Positions 26,386 to 40,006 of a DNA stretch of 64,000 bases are shown one piece after another (the stretch's first letter is position 1; every line of letters starts with the position of its first letter). Both the position numbers and the translations under genes were made by a program. Source of the DNA: a virus. The stretch is taken from positions 1,002 through 65,001 of IMG/VR virus record IMGVR_UViG_3300004097_000003; one strand, written 5' to 3'. The notes beneath the pieces are model-generated. The model saw nothing but the letters and a program-made list of their open reading frames with translations, was not told where the DNA came from and made no database searches.

Positions 26386-28554
26386 ATGATTAATGAAATT
26401 CGTTTAAGGACGTTTACTTCGCAGGTTGGAGAGGATAATGAAGTTCTCTCCAGAGACCCGAAGCAGAACGCTATAGAATACGAAGGAGATACAGGTCCCA
26501 ATACTAGATTAGTTGAGGATGTCGCCTTCAATAAAAAACTAGGTGTACTAACATTCATTAGAAACAACGGTGAAGTCATTGAAGCAAGCGGGTTCTTAAC
26601 AGAGGATCAGATAGGGCACGGCCCTAAAGGTAAGGTAGGTAGAATAGGTAAAGCAGGTCGTGATGGTGAAGAAGGCCGACTAGGTAAAGAAGGACCTGCT
26701 GGATGTGAAGGTGCGCAAGGTAATGCGGGCGATAAAGGGATGTCAGGTAGAGATGGTGAGGATGGTCCTGTAGGTATAGCAGGTACTTCTGGATGTGAAG
26801 GAGATGTAGGCCCTGAGGGTGACGAAGGGGATAAAGGTCCTAAAGGATTCCAAGGATCGATGGGTAAAGACGGGTTAGACTGTATCATAGGCTGTCCTGG
26901 ACCTAAAGGGGAACAAGGTTTAGGTACTTTTGTAGTACAAAAGGAAACACCTACTGAGGAGCACGTATACTTATGGGGCGTTCCTTTTGAGAGCGTTTTA
27001 CCTGAGTTACCCAAAAAGCCTGATGATATGTCAGCTTCAATCAATTCTATAGTAGTTACTATGACTAAGGATAGAGGTACTACTTATACTGCTTCAGGCT
27101 CTTTAATAGTGAGCGACTTTAAAGGTGGTGTAGGACCTTTCTCTATCATTTGGACAGGTGACTATAAAGCTAAGTTAGGTATAACTAAGGATAGTATAAG
27201 TAACGACAGCCTAAGATTATCACTTGATGCCTCCGCTGAAATAGAACCAGGTGAGGTTGCTGAGATTGCTGGCGATGCCGTTGTTACCATAACGGATACG
27301 TCAAATGGTAAACAGCTAGTTTTACCTACTACGTATGAATTTAAAGGGAGCAACAGTACGGTAGTTGCTCCTCCCATATACGGTAACGTACGTGATGCAG
27401 CCGTTGTTGAAGGTGATGACTTAAAGTTCTTAGTAACTACTACGAGTCCTTTACTCTCATCAGTACGAATCACATATACGCTAAAGTCAGGAACAGCAGG
27501 AACCTCCGACTACAAGGATTTGGGTCAAGGTTACATGGACTTAAGCATAGGCGTGGACCAGTTCTACGTTAATGTAGAAGCAATACGCGATTCTATACCT
27601 AACGAAGATGTGGAAACAATGTCGGTTACTGTTAGTATTCCTGGCGTATCTGAATTAAATGCAGGTGATATGACAGCAATAGGTACTATTACTGAGGCTG
27701 ATAGCCATATAGTACCTATTGTCCTAGGGCCTGCAGTGGTGACGGAGGGAAGTACTGCAAAAATAACCATCAGGCTAGGTGGTTCTTACATAGAAGGTGT
27801 CACCGGCGGCTACGCAGTTAAGTATAGAACATTATCGGATACAGCGGGTACGTCGGACTACGTAGCTCGGTCTGGGACTCTAACTTTCACCTATAGTTGG
27901 GAAGAGAAAGTCATTGAAATAGCAACAATAGATGATTCTATTGTTGAAGCCACTGAGCAGTTTTATTTTGAGTTGTACGATGCAGGTGCACATCTTGACT
28001 TAGGTGGAGATACTAAAAAAGTTACGGTTACAGTTAATGACAATGACGAAACTTATAGGGGTTCTACCGGCGGTGGGTGTATAGGATGGGGTGCGAAAGT
28101 TGAAACGCCTGAAGGTACTACATCTATAGAGACTGTATTGATAGGTGATACTATCCTAGGATACGCTGAGCCTAGTATGTCAACAAGTGCTAATTCAAAC
28201 GATCCAGAAGTATTAAACTGGCACGCCCTTGAGTTAAGAGGCAAACGTGCTTGGGTTATGGTTACAAATGCTAGGCATGATACATACCCTCAATACAAAG
28301 TTATCAACGATCTTAACTTAACTTTCGATCATCCTGTCATGACTAAGCGTGATGGCGTATGGCAGTGGCTACCTGCCCTGCAAGTTATAGTTAGTGATAT
28401 TGTCCTAGGCACTGATAGTCAAGAAGTCCCAGTTACAATAGCTACAGAAGTATACAAAGAACTTAAAGTAGTAGAGCTTGACGTTGAGCCTCACGATGTC
28501 TATTATGTTAACGACATACTAGTCCACAATGTGAATAAAATTGTACATAAGTAA
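26386..28554 (+). CDS. collagen-like fibre with two Calx-beta domains and C-terminal Hint autoprocessing domain (722 aa)
   Basis: 29+ Gly-X-Y triplets from 26620; Calx-beta x2 (about 27379-28047); Hint: GGG|C565, T646-F-D-H649, ILVH-N715. Confidence 0.85.
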   Translation: MINEIRLRTFTSQVGEDNEVLSRDPKQNAIEYEGDTGPNTRLVEDVAFNKKLGVLTFIRNNGEVIEASGFLTEDQIGHGPKGKVGRIGKAGRDGEEGRLGKEGPAGCEGAQGNAGDKGMSGRDGEDGPVGIAGTSGCEGDVGPEGDEGDKGPKGFQGSMGKDGLDCIIGCPGPKGEQGLGTFVVQKETPTEEHVYLWGVPFESVLPELPKKPDDMSASINSIVVTMTKDRGTTYTASGSLIVSDFKGGVGPFSIIWTGDYKAKLGITKDSISNDSLRLSLDASAEIEPGEVAEIAGDAVVTITDTSNGKQLVLPTTYEFKGSNSTVVAPPIYGNVRDAAVVEGDDLKFLVTTTSPLLSSVRITYTLKSGTAGTSDYKDLGQGYMDLSIGVDQFYVNVEAIRDSIPNEDVETMSVTVSIPGVSELNAGDMTAIGTITEADSHIVPIVLGPAVVTEGSTAKITIRLGGSYIEGVTGGYAVKYRTLSDTAGTSDYVARSGTLTFTYSWEEKVIEIATIDDSIVEATEQFYFELYDAGAHLDLGGDTKKVTVTVNDNDETYRGSTGGGCIGWGAKVETPEGTTSIETVLIGDTILGYAEPSMSTSANSNDPEVLNWHALELRGKRAWVMVTNARHDTYPQYKVINDLNLTFDHPVMTKRDGVWQWLPALQVIVSDIVLGTDSQEVPVTIATEVYKELKVVELDVEPHDVYYVNDILVHNVNKIVHK

Positions 28555-28564
28555 GGAGAATTAA

Positions 28565-29197
28565 ATGTTAACTAGACCTCCTATGGAATCAGTTAATGCT
28601 AACGGTACTGCCAGTCAGACTGACGTTATAGTTAAAGACGGGAAGTTAGCTGCGGGTAACAAAGAAGATAGTCAAACCGCTGAGGTACAAGATATATTCT
28701 TCGATTCTACTGTCGGTATTCTCGTCATAGAGTTTACTAATGGTGAGACTAAGCGTGTATCTGGGTTCCCTACGTTCGGAACTATACCGGATGGTCCTGC
28801 AGGTCCTACAGGCGACCCTGGTGAAGACGGAAAAGAGGGACGTGACGGACGTGACGGTGAAACAGGAGCACCTGGATGCTTCGGGCCTATTGGACCTAAA
28901 GGAGTAGAGGGTGATCCCGGACGCAATGGCGAAGATGGAGCACCCGGAGCACCTGGACCTAAAGGCTGTCCTGGTCCAGCAGGTAATAAGGGACCTAAAG
29001 GGGAACCTGGAGATGTGGGGGAACCTGGAGTACAAGGACCTCCAGGTGATACAGGTCCTCAAGGCCCTGAGGGTGAGCGTGGTCCAGCAGGTAAAATCAA
29101 CTATATCATAAGTACATCAGACCCAGGAACTAGCGCAGGTGCTGGCAGTATATGGATTAATCCTAACATTACAGAAACCAGCCCGGCTTGGCCGTAG
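28565..29197 (+). CDS. collagen-like fibre protein (210 aa)
   Basis: About 34 uninterrupted Gly-X-Y triplets from 28793; AAGGAG RBS. Confidence 0.9.
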
Positions 29198-29205
29198 GAG
29201 TTAGT

Positions 29206-30273
29206 ATGAGTGACGTTAAAACCAATATGCTAGATATCGGACATATTAGCGGTGACTTACGAGTCCAAGATGGAACGCTTAAAATTGTCCCTGATTCTAT
29301 GACGCCTAATGGCAATGTTACAGGATATATTGATAAAACAGGAGTCTTGACTATTGACATACCTGGCCACGGTACTATACAAGCAAACGGATTCCTAACG
29401 CGTGCTGATATCGGTCAGGGGCATGAAGGCAATAGGGGAAATGAAGGCAGTAATGGAACTGACGGATCGATAGGATTAGATGGCTCCAAAGGTGTTATAG
29501 GTGATAGGGGAGAAGTAGGTAGTAGAGGCGTACCTGGAGTAAGAGGACCCAGAGGCATGCAAGGCAGTTTTGGCCAAAATGGCAATAGTGGTGCGGAGGG
29601 AGTTAAAGGAGATGACGCCTTTGTTAATATGTTTATACAGGAGTCAGACCCAGGGGCTCCAGGCGCAGGCGCAGTATGGGTTAAACCTATATACACCCAC
29701 CTGCAAGAAGCCATTGCTGATATACAAGCCAATTGTAGTAGTGATGAAGATGAAGATACAGAGGAATTACCAGTCATTGAAGGTGATTCGGAATCACATC
29801 CTTATACAAGTGATGGACATGCTACAGGTAGCTTAGTCGTTTACTTCGATACAAGTACGTACACCACTTTAGAAGACAGCGGTAAGGAATTCATACGTGT
29901 AGAAGAAGAAGAAAGATTCATACTAATACTTAGACTACTTTCGCCGTTACCTATTGATGCTGTATTCCAAGTGAAACTTAGAGAGGACCCTACTAATATT
30001 GCATGGGCGGGATTCAAATGGGATTCAGATGACGCTAAGGGTACTGTAGAAAGAACACTTACAATACCAGCAGGTAAGTTAGTCTCTGATGAACTTACCG
30101 CTTACGTTCCTGAGGATTGGGTAATCGCAAGCGATAGCGGTTATGGCGAACTTGCAATTTCGTCCGATTCAGGTAACAATCAAATAATGATTGACGAAAG
30201 TACGTACCAATTTGTCAGTGATTCCCCCAAATTGAACTATATTAAGATGCGAGTCTATCCTAAGATTTCGTAG
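29206..30273 (+). CDS. collagen-like fibre protein with C-terminal Calx-beta-like domain
   Basis: Start 29206 (AGGAG RBS); 22 Gly-X-Y triplets; DPGAPGAGAVWVKP cap; TLTIPAG. Confidence 0.85.
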   Translation: MSDVKTNMLDIGHISGDLRVQDGTLKIVPDSMTPNGNVTGYIDKTGVLTIDIPGHGTIQANGFLTRADIGQGHEGNRGNEGSNGTDGSIGLDGSKGVIGDRGEVGSRGVPGVRGPRGMQGSFGQNGNSGAEGVKGDDAFVNMFIQESDPGAPGAGAVWVKPIYTHLQEAIADIQANCSSDEDEDTEELPVIEGDSESHPYTSDGHATGSLVVYFDTSTYTTLEDSGKEFIRVEEEERFILILRLLSPLPIDAVFQVKLREDPTNIAWAGFKWDSDDAKGTVERTLTIPAGKLVSDELTAYVPEDWVIASDSGYGELAISSDSGNNQIMIDESTYQFVSDSPKLNYIKMRVYPKIS

Positions 30274-30306
30274 TATTACATAATTTTCTAAACACGTGAG
30301 GTGCTT

Positions 30307-30798
30307 ATGTTAACAAGACCACCACTAAATGCAATTGATGCTGGAGCCGAAAGCGGTGACGTAACTTCAAATGCACTTAATCTACAAGTAGAATCTATTG
30401 ACGATAGTATAGCGACTGAGCTTGGTGCTAAATACGATTCAGTCAATGGCTCTCTAGTTATATCATTCCCAGGATACCCACACCTTAGGATAAACGGCTT
30501 CATGACGCCTATTCATATTAAAGAAGGCAGACAAGGTAAACCTGGGTATGAAGGCAGAGAAGGAATCGAAGGCACTATAGGATCTGACGGAGAGCAAGGC
30601 CAGCAAGGATGTTTAGGCCCAGAGGGTCCTCAGGGACGTCCAGGTCAACGTGGACCTAGAGGTCAGATGGGTTCTCAAGGTGAGATTGGTCCTACGGGTC
30701 CTGATGGGGCTAAAGGAGAGCCTGGAGAATTTCTAGTCTATATACAGAACGACGAACCCGTAGGGGTGGAGCACGGTGCGCTGTGGGTGAAACAATAA
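30307..30798 (+). CDS. collagen-like fibre protein
   Basis: Start 30307 (GAGGT RBS; MLTRPP, identical to the 28565 start); 23 triplets from 30526. Confidence 0.9.
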   Translation: MLTRPPLNAIDAGAESGDVTSNALNLQVESIDDSIATELGAKYDSVNGSLVISFPGYPHLRINGFMTPIHIKEGRQGKPGYEGREGIEGTIGSDGEQGQQGCLGPEGPQGRPGQRGPRGQMGSQGEIGPTGPDGAKGEPGEFLVYIQNDEPVGVEHGALWVKQ

Positions 30799-30810: not shown

Positions 30811-33468
30811 ATGGCACTTAACTTAGAACTATCAAGTTCGAATGAAAAGTCAGTACTATACGATGGTGAGTACGGAGATTTAGACTACATAGAAAGCTCC
30901 TTAACTTTATATTTTAGTGTAGAAGGAACTAGCTCGTATTCTGTTACGATTATCGATGCGGATACAGGAAACGACCAGACGTCTATCGTACAAGTCGGTC
31001 AGGGAACACTAACCATAGACCTTCGTATTCTAAAAAGTTATTTCACAATAGGTACTACCGTATTCGGTGGTACTGTTGTGTTACAGATAGACGATAATGA
31101 TAGTACTGATACTGGTCAGTTTAACATCGACTTCCATTTCGCCGTTACAAATAACGCAGTATACGTGGCTCCAGTGACATTCGGCCTCAGTACAAACGGT
31201 ATTGCCATTAGTACTGAGTTACAGCGCAGTAGTGGTATTGATTTCGTTGAGCGCGCCGCGTATCCTACGGTAGAAGTACTTGGAGGCTCAGGTCCTTTCG
31301 AGTACACTTGGGTTCCTGCAAACTTTGAACACTTCTTAATAGAATCAGTAGAAGGTCTTGATACAGACAAACCTACCGTAAACTATAAACTCGATGTTGC
31401 GTCGGACCTACCTGAAGAACTATTTAATTCCGATGGAGGCAAGTGGACTCAGACAGGTATATTTAACGTAAGCGTTCGAGATACCAGTAACGGTGATATC
31501 TCGTTAGGAGAAGTATCCTGGAGCTTCACTGTTAGTGTACAGGAGGAGGAAAGAGGCGACTCGGTAGTTAAAGAAAGCAGAATCATACCAGGACGATTTA
31601 GAGTACGAAACCCTCTCAATAGCTTCTGGTATGACTTATGTTATTATGAAATGTACGTCTTTGATAAAGATTACCTACAGTGGATTAGACTATTCCCTAA
31701 TAAGGTGTTTGTGCGCGATGGAGGCAGCAGTGATTGGATTGAAATAGGTTGCATTACTGATACTTCCTATGACGACCCTTGTGCAGGCTTCGGGTCAGGT
31801 ACCGATTGTTCAGGTGAACCTCAAGATCCTCTTGCGGGATCTGGTGATGGATTTGGTTCTAATGGTCCTTCATACGATGTCGATACAGGATATCCTGCAG
31901 GCTTTGATATGCCTGACAGCTCACTCGGTGGCTACGGTATTAAGATTGCACCTAAAGCCACTGGTTACGATACTCCGGTAGGTTACATAATGCAGCGTCC
32001 CGGACTACAGTCGGAAGAATCTTATGATCCTACAGGTCTATCTGCCGATGAAGGCGCTCACGGTAAGTATAATAGTCCTAACTTAAATGGAGCCAGCACT
32101 TGGGGTAGAGGTGCAGCGGTTACTGAGACTATATATGAATTACCTGCACAGAATGGTTATTACGAACTTCTCTATGCTGCTTACGATTCCGTTAGTATCG
32201 ATGTTTACTACGTAGGTCAGCGAGTAGCTACAACATGTGGACCTGTGCCTAAGTTGACGCGAGGTCTATTGACGTTTAATGTTAACATAGCGACAGGTCT
32301 AGGTGAAAGACGTATCATGATTAGGGTACGTGGTGCCGAGGATGTTAGATGGGCTTACCAAGTAGTAGGTCCTAAAGCTTCACCTGTGCTACAAGATTTC
32401 GATAACCAAGACGATGATGATTACGCAAATATCAATGAGTTTCTTTACGAAGAATCTGAAATGATGCAAACCCAGTACATAGGTACGCCTATGTTTCCTG
32501 CACCCTGTCACGGCACTGTAGGTAATGTAGATCAGACGTTTCCTTGGGCATTATCTGATAGAATTGAGACGCAAAACTGGTTTGAGTACTATCACTATGT
32601 CGGCGAAAACGGGGGTCCAATGGTGCTCGATTTTAGCTCATGGGCAGCCGCTGACTACGTTGAAATCTGGCAAAATGGGGTTCGGATAGCTACATCTCAA
32701 GATTATAACCAAACTCCAGGCTATGTTGATTTTATATATGAAGCCCGTGAAGGCGTTCAAGATATAATGGTTAGAGTGCATACAGAATCAAAAGGTATGG
32801 GTCAAGATTTAAGTACTTGGTACTATACACTATTCTGCCCTAACGCAATTGGCCACAGAAGACAACCATGGCCTTGTGGGCCTGACGTTATATACAGCAT
32901 GGGACATCCTGCCACAGAGGATAACTTTGATATAGATAACGGCGTCGAGCGTGGTGCCTTTAAAGTATACATGCGAGAGTGTACGGCTACTACATTAGTT
33001 AGAGTATTCAATAGAGACGGAGACTTGATAACGTCGATGACGGGCGAAGGTGACTTCGATGTAGAGGCTTTCAATTTCGATGTGGTTACAGGAGAAGTAC
33101 ATAAGGATATATATGTACGTGTTGAGACTTCTATAGGGCATGGTTGGCAATACACCGTAAGTTGTCCAGTACCTTTACTTGATATAATACTAAAACCTGT
33201 AGACCCAAGTGTAGAGTGGTCTATAACCGATGAAATTATACAGGACGATTCTGAGTATGTCGAACTTATCGTAAGCATAAACAAAGCCCAATTGGTTGAT
33301 AGGTCTATTGATTGGGCTACTAGCAACGACACTGCGTATGACCTAACGGACTACTGTGCTGCTAACGGAACTGTGACAATACCTGCTGGACAGACTAGTA
33401 TTAAGATTCAAATTAATTTAGCTCCTTGTGATGCTGAGGATGAGGATGAGGATGCACCTAGCACCTGA
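30811..33468 (+). CDS. tail fibre/adhesin-associated protein with three tandem beta-sandwich repeats and a truncated Calx-beta (885 aa)
   Basis: Repeats ending WAYQVVGP, WYYTLFCP, WQYTVSCP; C-terminal WATSNDTA..DY..GTVTIPAGQTS. Confidence 0.7.
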   Translation: MALNLELSSSNEKSVLYDGEYGDLDYIESSLTLYFSVEGTSSYSVTIIDADTGNDQTSIVQVGQGTLTIDLRILKSYFTIGTTVFGGTVVLQIDDNDSTDTGQFNIDFHFAVTNNAVYVAPVTFGLSTNGIAISTELQRSSGIDFVERAAYPTVEVLGGSGPFEYTWVPANFEHFLIESVEGLDTDKPTVNYKLDVASDLPEELFNSDGGKWTQTGIFNVSVRDTSNGDISLGEVSWSFTVSVQEEERGDSVVKESRIIPGRFRVRNPLNSFWYDLCYYEMYVFDKDYLQWIRLFPNKVFVRDGGSSDWIEIGCITDTSYDDPCAGFGSGTDCSGEPQDPLAGSGDGFGSNGPSYDVDTGYPAGFDMPDSSLGGYGIKIAPKATGYDTPVGYIMQRPGLQSEESYDPTGLSADEGAHGKYNSPNLNGASTWGRGAAVTETIYELPAQNGYYELLYAAYDSVSIDVYYVGQRVATTCGPVPKLTRGLLTFNVNIATGLGERRIMIRVRGAEDVRWAYQVVGPKASPVLQDFDNQDDDDYANINEFLYEESEMMQTQYIGTPMFPAPCHGTVGNVDQTFPWALSDRIETQNWFEYYHYVGENGGPMVLDFSSWAAADYVEIWQNGVRIATSQDYNQTPGYVDFIYEAREGVQDIMVRVHTESKGMGQDLSTWYYTLFCPNAIGHRRQPWPCGPDVIYSMGHPATEDNFDIDNGVERGAFKVYMRECTATTLVRVFNRDGDLITSMTGEGDFDVEAFNFDVVTGEVHKDIYVRVETSIGHGWQYTVSCPVPLLDIILKPVDPSVEWSITDEIIQDDSEYVELIVSINKAQLVDRSIDWATSNDTAYDLTDYCAANGTVTIPAGQTSIKIQINLAPCDAEDEDEDAPST

Positions 33469-39244: not shown

Positions 39245-40006
39245 ATGTTAACTAAACCGAAGATTAGTATGATAGCTCCAAGTCAGAACTCTGCTGATAA
39301 TGATGTAGTGAAGACGGCTGGAGGTAAGTTAAAGTCGGAGCAGAATGTAGTACCTATAGGGGACGCCGCAGTTAAGAGTGGCCGATATGATACTACGACA
39401 GGCACTTTGATGATAACGTTAGGTGATGACAGTACTTTAGTCGTGGAGGGTTTTCCTACTGACCAGAGTATAGGAACTGGCCCTAAAGGTGATAGAGGTG
39501 CTGTAGGAAAAGGAGGCCGTCCTGGCAAGAACGGCAAAGATGGATTAGATGGCCCTCAAGGATGTCCAGGGTCTAAAGGAGATAAAGGTGAAATCGGTCC
39601 TACAGGGCCAGAAGGCCCTATGGGTATAACGGGTGAGCAAGGTATTCAAGGTATTCAGGGCCAGCAAGGTGACAGGGGACCTAAAGGAGAACCTGGGCAA
39701 GAACCTATTTACGTATACAGTGAAGCAGGTAGTGAAGAACGAACAGTACAATATGGCCGTGTCATGCTGTGGGGTCACTATCAGTCGGACGGTAGCGTTA
39801 ACACTGCTGATGTTAGGTATCCTCAGGCTACAACTAGACTTACACAAACTGTAGTAGCCTTCTTCGCTAATCCTCAATCCGTTCAAGCTCAAAACTATGA
39901 GATTGAAGCGCAGACGAAAGAAGGGTTTGCTCTACGCGTACCATCATCATTTGCCTTACCCCTTGATGACGATTGGGACTTCCAATGGATAGCACTAGGA
40001 GATTAA
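39245..40006 (+). CDS. collagen-like fibre protein with C-terminal tip domain (253 aa)
   Basis: 25 Gly-X-Y triplets from 39479; C-terminal MLWG...FQWIALG resembles common fibre-tip lectin-like domains. Confidence 0.85.
   Translation: MLTKPKISMIAPSQNSADNDVVKTAGGKLKSEQNVVPIGDAAVKSGRYDTTTGTLMITLGDDSTLVVEGFPTDQSIGTGPKGDRGAVGKGGRPGKNGKDGLDGPQGCPGSKGDKGEIGPTGPEGPMGITGEQGIQGIQGQQGDRGPKGEPGQEPIYVYSEAGSEERTVQYGRVMLWGHYQSDGSVNTADVRYPQATTRLTQTVVAFFANPQSVQAQNYEIEAQTKEGFALRVPSSFALPLDDDWDFQWIALGD

Follow-up and report, generated by a model that had tools for sequence, protein, structure and literature searches.

A candidate self-removing Hint cap at the C-terminal end of a jumbo-phage tail fibre

Phage fibres shed C-terminal chaperone domains through S74 serine-lysine peptidases. 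The window analyzed here (64,000 nucleotides, positions 1,002 to 65,001 of the IMG/VR record IMGVR_UViG_3300004097_000003) raises the question of what an intein-like domain does in the same place, at the end of a collagen-containing fibre. The gene follows the baseplate-wedge and tail genes of the window and belongs to a phage known from metagenomes only, whose protein relatives are Y3/Sasquatchvirus-like jumbo phages; no isolated phage matched the locus in a near-identity search at the DNA level. The open reading frame (26386..28554, + strand, from the ORF list and its translation) encodes the 722-residue protein P0001, and a codon-by-codon check found every motif codon in agreement with the printed DNA. 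The elements named in the first-pass annotation (GSTGGG, Cys565 at codon 28078, T646-F-D-H649, Asn715, and the terminal VNKIVHK, with Val716 at +1) are all present as described. The features of the gene are as follows.

26386..28554, +: whole fibre gene, P0001 (PHROG 38766 'virion structural protein', E 2.2e-64; syntenic with Y3_110)
26386..26616, +: N-terminal docking-type domain, residues 1-77 (common to paralogous collagen fibres)
26617..26925, +: collagen-like Gly-X-Y repeats, residues about 78-180 (Pfam Collagen, E 3.4e-14)
27799..28047, +: Calx-beta domain, best stretch residues 472-554 (Pfam Calx-beta, E 1.7e-13)
28060..28077, +: Gly-rich linker GSTGGG, residues 559-564 (Gly564 is the -1 residue of the predicted scissile bond)
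28078..28530, +: predicted Hint (type-A BIL-like) autoprocessing domain, Cys565-Asn715, 151 aa (AlphaFold2 model, structure and profile matches)
28078..28080, +: Cys565 (TGT), block A nucleophile, Cys1 (invariant in 109/109 aligned copies)
28321..28332, +: block B, T646-F-D-H649 (ACT TTC GAT CAT; Thr and His each at least 90% conserved)
28471..28530, +: blocks F/G, VVELDVEPHDVYYVNDILVHN (Asp699, Glu701, Asp704, His714, Asn715; E701 and D704 at least 90% conserved, H714 and N715 invariant)
28525..28530, +: His714-Asn715 (CAC AAT, codons in the printed DNA)
28531..28551, +: tail VNKIVHK, 7 residues (Val716 at +1, Lys718, Lys722; from the sequence)
28552..28554, +: stop codon TAA of the fibre gene (from the sequence)

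The docking-type domain also occurs on collagen-fibre paralogues at 28565, 29188, 30301, and 39245; the pattern ...G.L.I/F....G......GF.T is seen in their N-termini, and PHROG 38766/8745 match them. NCBIfam Scl-type matches cover residues 78-178 of P0001, and Pfam Calx-beta matches two stretches, the second given without a position, so the collagen/Calx-beta fibre that had been proposed upstream of the domain is borne out. The syntenic gene Y3_110 is annotated 'putative tail protein, contains intein domain', and the GenBank label "contains intein domain" is already attached to the homologues in phages Y3 and NCTB. A second Hint copy was not found in the genome record, of which 83 kb were covered.

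The last 170 residues of P0001 were modeled by AlphaFold2 as a confident Hint fold (pLDDT 91.1, pTM 0.86). Comparison of this model with the PDB using VIA-align gave 81 chains at Z of at least 8, and among the matches listed all belong to the Hint superfamily. The top match is the Tetrahymena BUBL BIL2 domain (6y75, Z 18.5), followed by the C. thermocellum BIL domain (2lwy, Z 17.7, rmsd 1.4); the scores to BIL domains are level with those to the best mini-inteins and to Hedgehog (1at0, Z 17.1), and Foldseek assigned a probability of 1.00 to 2lwy, 6y75, 6qaz, and 1at0 alike. When the family profile was searched against the PDB, BIL2 6y75 came out at 4e-17 and 2lwy at 1.9e-16; the best true intein reached 2.7e-10, and Hedgehog domains were absent at E ≤ 1e-3. 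At the level of individual motifs, the block B stretch aligns with block B of the Pho RadA intein and the block F/G stretch, which contains LDVEPHD...VHN715, with the C-terminal block of the gp41-1 intein. The last 167 residues match PHROG 38766 (E 1.6e-24). Together with the AlphaFold2 model and the 516 cluster representatives described below, this match shows that the motifs did not arise by chance. Pfam Hint_2 reached 13.7 bits (E 0.081), under its threshold, so Pfam alone would miss the domain; the NCBIfam search gave no match to the Hint part of P0001, and several Hint-clan Pfam models match family members, each weakly. With all catalytic blocks present, including the block A Cys and the block B T-x-x-H, the modeled C-terminus of P0001 is a member of the Hint superfamily, as the first-pass annotation had claimed and as the structural model and PDB matches now corroborate. 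Its nearest relatives by profile similarity are known type-A BIL domains, ahead of inteins and Hog domains. Its length of 151 residues from Cys565 to Asn715 likewise matches the earlier description and leaves no space for an endonuclease. A peptidase S74 chaperone was ruled out, as the fold is Hint and neither Pfam nor PHROG gave an S74 match in P0001.

Searches with the Hint family at E ≤ 1e-3 matched 516 cluster representatives (clustered at 50% identity). Complete copies lie at most 30 residues from the protein end in 111 of 115 cases; these 111 provide the residue counts given below, and 109 copies were aligned. Cys1 and the His-Asn pair are invariant in the alignment, and the block B Thr and His and the block F Glu and Asp are conserved in at least 90% of copies, at identities to the P0001 Hint domain of just 22-39%, two close homologues excepted. 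Relative to an orthologue with 67% identity, the Hint domain has a dN of 0.20, compared with 0.29-0.39 for the middle and Calx parts (dS is saturated in the Hint domain and 1.8 over the whole gene). The Hint part of the fibre gene is under purifying selection. These data bear on whether the Hint domain might simply stay on the fibre as a structural or receptor-binding knob, its catalytic motifs being relics. Receptor-binding domains usually sit at the distal fibre end, as this compact beta domain does, but relics would not keep Cys1, the block B Thr/His, and His-Asn near-invariant at such low identity, a binding knob would conserve or diversify its surface loops and not its active site, and the Hint dN lies below that of the fibre body. 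We regard a retained tip as very improbable.

The domains that precede the Hint domain are unrelated fibre modules: collagen is found in 21 of 84 family proteins, followed by Calx-beta, fn3, PASTA, Ig, PKD, GP38, and Phage_tail_fib, and each of several tail-fibre PHROGs is matched by 17-20 of the 84. Tandem Hint arrays joined by K-(G)n linkers alone also exist. The window ORF at 30811-33468 lacks an end of ~335 residues that is present in its 77%-identical orthologue P0024; in P0024 and in BN7874_132 of phage NCTB this end carries a second Gly-Hint-Lys module. Such presence and absence of a cassette among close relatives, together with the bare tandem arrays, is what would be expected of a passenger, that is, a selfish or neutral mini-intein-like element with its own minimal flanks (the Gly run and the Lys tail), able to excise itself cleanly and spread by recombining fibre-tip cassettes with no benefit to the phage. 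Such an element appears quite unlikely here: a homing endonuclease is absent, the module is always C-terminal and not in conserved sites, the same orthologous fibre gene carries it in the syntenic relatives L004 and L007 and in Y3, and the Hint domain shows purifying selection. A canonical intein in a conserved host protein was ruled out separately, since just 7 residues follow the domain (1-26 across the family) and the N-flanks are unrelated to one another.

The module of Gly run, Hint domain, and Lys tail seems widespread in uncultured phages. Among cultured phages it is almost restricted to the Y3/Sasquatchvirus-like jumbo group, and P0050, a more central family member, retrieved 3 records only from isolated phages. 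The literature surveyed, including jumbo-phage, 'hairy Myoviridae', fibre-atlas, and intein reviews, held no description of a C-terminal Hint domain on phage fibres, and no experiment on any member of the family was found there.

The residues flanking the Hint domain are informative as to its chemistry. Gly occupies position -1 in 81/111 copies, usually inside a Gly run, and predominates from -2 to -4 (55/111 at -5). The +1 position is variable, with Ala in 29, Val in 15, Leu in 10, Ser, Lys, and Phe in 9 each, and others; even among Y3-like orthologues it is Thr, Ser, or Ala. Of the two flanking features whose conservation the first-pass annotation had suggested checking, GGG-C and +1, the glycine holds in most of the family and +1 does not. 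Ser, Thr, or Cys at +1 occurs in only 13/111 copies, so canonical class-1 splicing is not the conserved feature, and for P0001 a canonical class-1 intein was rejected (Val716 at +1, no real C-extein). The rule, given in the first-pass annotation, that splicing requires Cys, Ser, or Thr at +1 is not strict in the closest relatives: flank ligation that needs no nucleophilic side chain is reported for type-A BIL domains (by Dassa 2004 and Aranko 2013, cited in PMC7664689 and PMC7765530). The products of BIL domains are mainly N- and C-cleaved (PMC7664689). Tetrahymena BIL2, moreover, is reported to form Lys(epsilon-NH2)-C-terminus, Gly-to-Lys isopeptide bonds (PMC8616854). Given these two precedents for ligation, the label 'non-splicing' is not established.

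The tail after Asn is never absent and spans 1-26 residues (median 7). It contains Lys in 109/111 copies, against 40% expected, mostly at the last or penultimate position (64/111 at the last two positions, against 19% expected); the binomial P values for this enrichment overstate independence because family members are related. The tail Lys had not been mentioned in the first-pass annotation. Glu, Gln, and Asp are likewise enriched in the tails, by 1.6-2.1x, and the Lys enrichment could have another cause, such as a hydrophilic disordered end. Taken together, the invariant His-Asn, the ever-present tail, and its near-universal Lys suggest that the reaction involves the C-terminal junction.

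From the observed fold, catalytic residues and their invariance, selection, position, Gly run, Lys tail, and fibre context, we infer both the chemical steps and the purpose of the domain: it is probably a catalytically active, self-removing C-terminal maturation cap, carried by a tail or baseplate fibre in a Y3/Sasquatchvirus-like jumbo phage. Conserved sequence is not in itself proof of cleavage in the virion. The last 158 codons would encode an active type-A BIL-like Hint domain. Once the fibre had folded, Cys565, assisted by Thr646/His649 and Asp699, would attack the Gly564 carbonyl (an N-S acyl shift) and form a Gly thioester; Asn715 would then cyclize with the help of His714, cutting the bond to the 7-residue tail. 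This is the chemistry, N-terminal thioester formation plus Asn cyclization, that the first-pass annotation had expected. Resolution of the thioester would let the 151-residue Hint domain depart and leave a mature fibre ending in ...GSTGGG, the domain having served as a temporary cap during fibre folding or assembly.

If the domain is active, its thioester might well be resolved by water, with a likelihood somewhat short of even. The amine of the protein's own Lys-bearing tail, acting in BIL/BUBL style, is as likely a nucleophile, and ligation to it would leave a short peptide on the Gly end; resolution by an amine of another molecule is less to be expected. A purely hydrolytic cap needs neither the invariant His-Asn nor the Lys tail, so the anatomy is partly unexplained in this simplest version. 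More tentatively, the Gly-run/Hint/Lys-tail module could be a natural device for 'lysine-directed splicing', in which a Lys epsilon-amine would attack the Gly thioester in place of the +1 Cys/Ser/Thr. The attacking Lys would be that of the tail, the one at +1 in tandem arrays, or one on a different protein; the Hint domain would then be freed by Asn cyclization, with a Gly-Lys isopeptide left behind.

Capture of the Gly564 thioester by the amine of a different molecule (another subunit of fibre or baseplate, or a component of the host surface) would instead make the fibre self-conjugating, as the first-pass annotation suggested, its tip becoming covalently attached in the manner of BUBL BIL2 with its ubiquitin-like domains. 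The Gly run ahead of Cys1 is a family trait, and for BIL2, the closest solved relative by both profile and structure, ATP-independent conjugation of the Gly-Gly-ended N-flank to Lys on several substrates has been reported (PMC8616854). We nevertheless consider self-conjugation unlikely, as no acceptor candidate was identified and nothing in the virion is an obvious partner for a cap at the far tip of a trimeric fibre. The unrelated folds of the N-terminal partners mean that any acceptor would have to be generic, and the conserved Lys in the protein's own tail favors a reaction in cis.

If the cap is as we propose, thioester chemistry of the intein/Hedgehog kind would be a second, unrelated maturation route for receptor-binding proteins. 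Because a thioester can be transferred to amines and the module comes with both the Gly run and Lys, the fibre tip may thereby acquire a cross-link or a defined covalent modification, which would affect the expression, modeling, and engineering of such fibres. Lysine-directed splicing, if true, would be a new class of Hint mechanism outside ciliates by which fibre tips are finished or coupled, an ATP-independent, ubiquitin-ligase-like chemistry widely used by phages. Being small (about 150 aa), diverse, and free of endonuclease, the domains are also candidate protein-ligation or cleavage tags. Erwinia phage Y3 gp110 is a cultivable relative in which the question is directly testable.

Among known systems, the type-A BIL domains, reportedly described by Amitai et al. 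in 2003 and Dassa et al. in 2004, share with the fibre Hint domain the fold, the N-terminal Cys, the C-terminal His-Asn, and the lack of both a conserved +1 nucleophile and an endonuclease. The proteins that carry them are in both cases variable ones, at the surface or secreted, and not conserved enzymes. The C. thermocellum BIL (PDB 2LWY, said to come from Aranko et al. in 2013) is the second-best match by profile and structure. The main departure is that the fibre Hint domain is phage-encoded, not bacterial; it is also always the last domain, followed by 1-26 residues only, has a Gly run before it and a Lys-bearing tail after it, and lacks a well-fitting Pfam model. BUBL BIL2 (PDB 6Y75/6TMM), the top match on both measures, has Gly-Gly directly before Cys1 and a C-terminal His-Asn as well. 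Its flanks are ubiquitin-like domains, whereas the fibre N-flank is Calx-beta, and its acceptor Lys is provided by a folded C-extein or by a separate protein, whereas the fibre C-flank is a 7-residue peptide with Lys718 and Lys722.

Hedgehog/Hog proteins (1AT0) also carry a C-terminal Hint domain, and Hog cleaves Gly|Cys via a thioester to leave a modified N-terminal product. Hog has a sterol/adduct-recognition region after the Hint domain and no terminal Asn, whereas the fibre Hint domain has the invariant His-Asn and a short tail; a Hedgehog-type reading was rejected on these grounds, as only VNKIVHK follows Asn715. Class-1 mini-inteins (cyanophage-like gp41-1, Ssp/Npu DnaB) have the same fold and blocks A, B, F, and G, and gp41-1 blocks align directly to both ends of the fibre Hint domain. 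In the profile search they trail BIL domains by more than 6 orders of magnitude, and the fibre domain is without their conserved +1 Cys/Ser/Thr, folded C-extein, or conserved insertion site. The favored functional analogy is with the peptidase S74 chaperone cap (endosialidase, T5 pb1 type), which is likewise C-terminal on trimeric phage fibres and is thought to aid assembly and then cleave itself off. Its fold and chemistry are unrelated to those of the fibre Hint domain, S74 using a Ser-Lys dyad and functioning as an oligomer (PMC7824862).

The 722-residue fibre protein ends in a Hint domain, and the positions on which its assignment depends are as follows.

26386-28554, + strand: fibre open reading frame, 722 aa (ORF call and translation)
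28060-28077, + strand: GSTGGG (read from the DNA)
28078-28080, + strand: Cys565, codon TGT (read from the DNA)
28321-28332, + strand: Thr646-Phe-Asp-His649 (read from the DNA)
28528-28530, + strand: Asn715, the last residue of VVELDVEPHDVYYVNDILVHN (read from the DNA)
28552-28554, + strand: TAA, directly after the tail VNKIVHK (read from the DNA)

Every residue named in the first-pass annotation is present in the DNA at its codon, and the collagen/Calx-beta fibre body that it described is matched by Pfam N-terminal of the Hint (collagen repeats, E = 3.4e-14; Calx-beta in two stretches, E = 1.7e-13). The span from Cys565 to Asn715 is 151 residues, which leaves no room for a homing endonuclease. 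Pfam by itself is weak on the fibre C-terminus (Hint_2, E = 0.081); PHROG 38766 matches the C-terminal 167 residues (E = 1.6e-24), and in a PDB sequence search the Pho RadA intein aligned with block B, and the cyanophage-like gp41-1 intein with both domain ends. [quoted passage not shown] Against PDB sequences the family profile finds BIL2 at 4e-17 and 2lwy at 1.9e-16, the best true intein lying more than six orders of magnitude behind. Several independent lines, from profile to predicted model, agree in identifying the Hint fold that had been proposed.

The fibre gene lies downstream of a baseplate-wedge gene and of genes for a tail protein of 1562 aa and a conserved protein of 784 aa, and upstream of three shorter paralogous collagen-like fibre genes. 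This gene order is shared with a 311-kb ENA contig (L004; fibre orthologue 67% identical), an 85-kb Logan contig, phage NCTB and Erwinia phage vB_EamM_Y3, whose orthologue Y3_110 bears the annotation 'putative tail protein, contains intein domain'. Among cultured phages the Hint module is nearly restricted to 'hairy' jumbo myoviruses (54 records), the hair-forming proteins of which are still unknown (PMC6143709). Four further collagen-like proteins have an N-terminal motif (...G.L.I....G......GF.T) in common with the Hint-capped fibre.

28565-29197, + strand: collagen-like protein
29188-30273, + strand: collagen-like protein
30301-30798, + strand: collagen-like protein
39245-40006, + strand: collagen-like protein

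All four lack the Hint domain, and they are probably paralogous fibres docking at the same site.

Searched exhaustively with HMMER, the 167-residue fibre end returned 516 cluster representatives at E ≤ 1e-3 (77 at E ≤ 1e-10). Pfam Hint-clan models match the members weakly and inconsistently, indicating a group without a fitting curated model. Of 115 complete copies studied, 111 have the Hint end within 30 residues of the protein C-terminus, and residue statistics were taken from these. N-terminal to the Hint, the members carry various unrelated fibre-type modules, most often collagen (21 of 84) and after it Calx-beta, fn3, PASTA, Ig, PKD, GP38 and Phage_tail_fib; several tail-fibre PHROGs each match 17-20 of the 84 proteins. 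Neither Cys1 nor the terminal His-Asn varies, and conservation is 90% or more at block B Thr/His and at block F Glu/Asp in the 109-member alignment. Such an active site, invariant across very divergent copies, is hard to square with a non-catalytic knob that stays on the fibre, which we regard as very unlikely.

The flanks are patterned as well. The GGG-C junction of the first-pass annotation recurs: Gly occupies position -1 in 81/111 copies, predominates at -2 to -4 and is found at -5 in 55/111, so that the family shows a Gly run ahead of Cys1. At +1, Ser, Thr or Cys stands in just 13/111 (by residue: Ala 29, Val 15, Leu 10, Ser 9, Lys 9, Phe 9, others). A tail of 1-26 residues (median 7) follows in all 111 copies, with 107 distinct sequences. 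Lys is present in 109 tails, a 4.2-fold enrichment whose significance is an upper bound given the kinship among the proteins, and is last or penultimate in 64; among 85 window ORFs, Lys falls within the last seven residues in 40% and within the last two in 19%. Tails of the close orthologues drift with the pattern kept (VNKIVHK here, AENALVHK, AEDNKLVMK, TDIVAKAEKL in phage Y3, APVDQKH in phage NCTB). In seven metagenomic proteins (P0051, P0083, P0097, P0113, P0115, P0127, P0145) two to four Hint domains stand in tandem, linked by nothing more than ...VHN-K-(G)1-4-C..., which places Lys at +1 and Gly at -1 throughout; three of these proteins (P0051, P0097, P0115) continue past the array into a Gly/Ser-rich region and a hydrophobic C-terminal segment resembling a transmembrane helix. 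If each unit were active, the arrays would free K(G)n peptides or couple Gly to Lys, and they support the idea that Gly at -1 and Lys on the + side may be part of the functional unit.

Some family matches are free-standing, about 150 aa long, and align with the Hint only from around residue 20, without the Cys1 block (phage NCTB BN7874_135, L002:801-1262; P0020, P0048, P0058, P0060, P0066); in phage NCTB the gene for such a protein is immediately downstream of a 'tail protein, contains intein domain'. These could be split caps, truncated caps or gene-calling artefacts.

The cassette is also gained or lost between close phages, as seen at a second fibre-locus gene.

30811-33468, + strand: 885-aa fibre-locus protein, compared with L004:14606-18232 and L002:2626-6540

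Over residues 1-873 it shares 77% identity with P0024, a 1208-aa protein of the closest relative, and it ends about 335 residues earlier, whereas P0024 and phage NCTB BN7874_132 continue into an extra domain and a second Gly-run/Hint/Lys-tail cassette (SGGGGFGGG/C ... VVHN/VENENQKD); no remnant of this cassette was found in the 83-kb genome record. Such presence and absence, like the tandem arrays, suggests a neutral intein-like passenger, but the module keeps a fixed C-terminal position, is retained on one and the same orthologous gene and is under purifying selection, all of which make that explanation improbable. Relative to the L004 orthologue (L004:10001-12172), the Hint (dN 0.20) and the N-terminal/collagen part (dN 0.18) are the two slowest regions, against a dN of 0.29-0.39 across the middle and Calx regions (dS saturated in the Hint, 1.8 for the whole gene). 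The Hint is therefore constrained at least as much as the fibre body; Calx-beta evolves fastest (dN 0.39, 54% identity), which would fit a host-facing, diversifying role for the middle and distal domains.

At the sequence level the residue set for both Hint half-reactions is complete and invariant, and we consider self-removal by an active domain probable. By established Hint chemistry, Cys565 would undergo an N-S acyl shift at the Gly564-Cys565 bond, Asn715 would cyclise with help from His714 to cut the Asn715-Val716 bond, and resolution of the thioester would release the Hint from the fibre. Given an active Hint, the amine of its own tail and water are about equally plausible as the resolving nucleophile, and a foreign amine is a lesser prospect. 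His-Asn and the tail would be superfluous for a purely hydrolytic cap; their strict retention, with Lys, is the chief ground for weighting tail ligation on a par with hydrolysis. BIL products are chiefly N- and C-cleaved (PMC7664689; PMC7765530), and type-A BILs are described in these sources, citing Dassa 2004 and Aranko 2013, as also ligating their flanks with no nucleophilic side chain. Capture of the Gly thioester by another molecule's amine, as the first-pass annotation proposed for a self-conjugating fibre, has a true precedent in BIL2, which makes a Lys(epsilon-NH2)-C-terminus isopeptide and attaches the flank ending in Gly-Gly to a number of proteins (PMC8616854); here, however, no candidate acceptor emerged and the conserved Lys is placed in cis, so this outcome seems unlikely. 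As to what a self-removing Hint would be for, we favour a temporary cap while the fibre folds or assembles, purely by analogy with the S74 intramolecular chaperones.

Homologues already carry an 'intein/Hint domain' label in GenBank and UniProt; our literature search found no paper describing or testing a Gly-run/Hint/Lys-tail fibre module. A canonical intein was ruled out (no +1 nucleophile, no real C-extein), as was a Hog domain (no adduct-recognition region). In every sequence and structure criterion that could be tested, the predicted domain agrees with a type-A BIL, from the described examples of which it differs in four respects: it is phage-encoded and strictly terminal, a Gly run precedes it and a short Lys tail follows.
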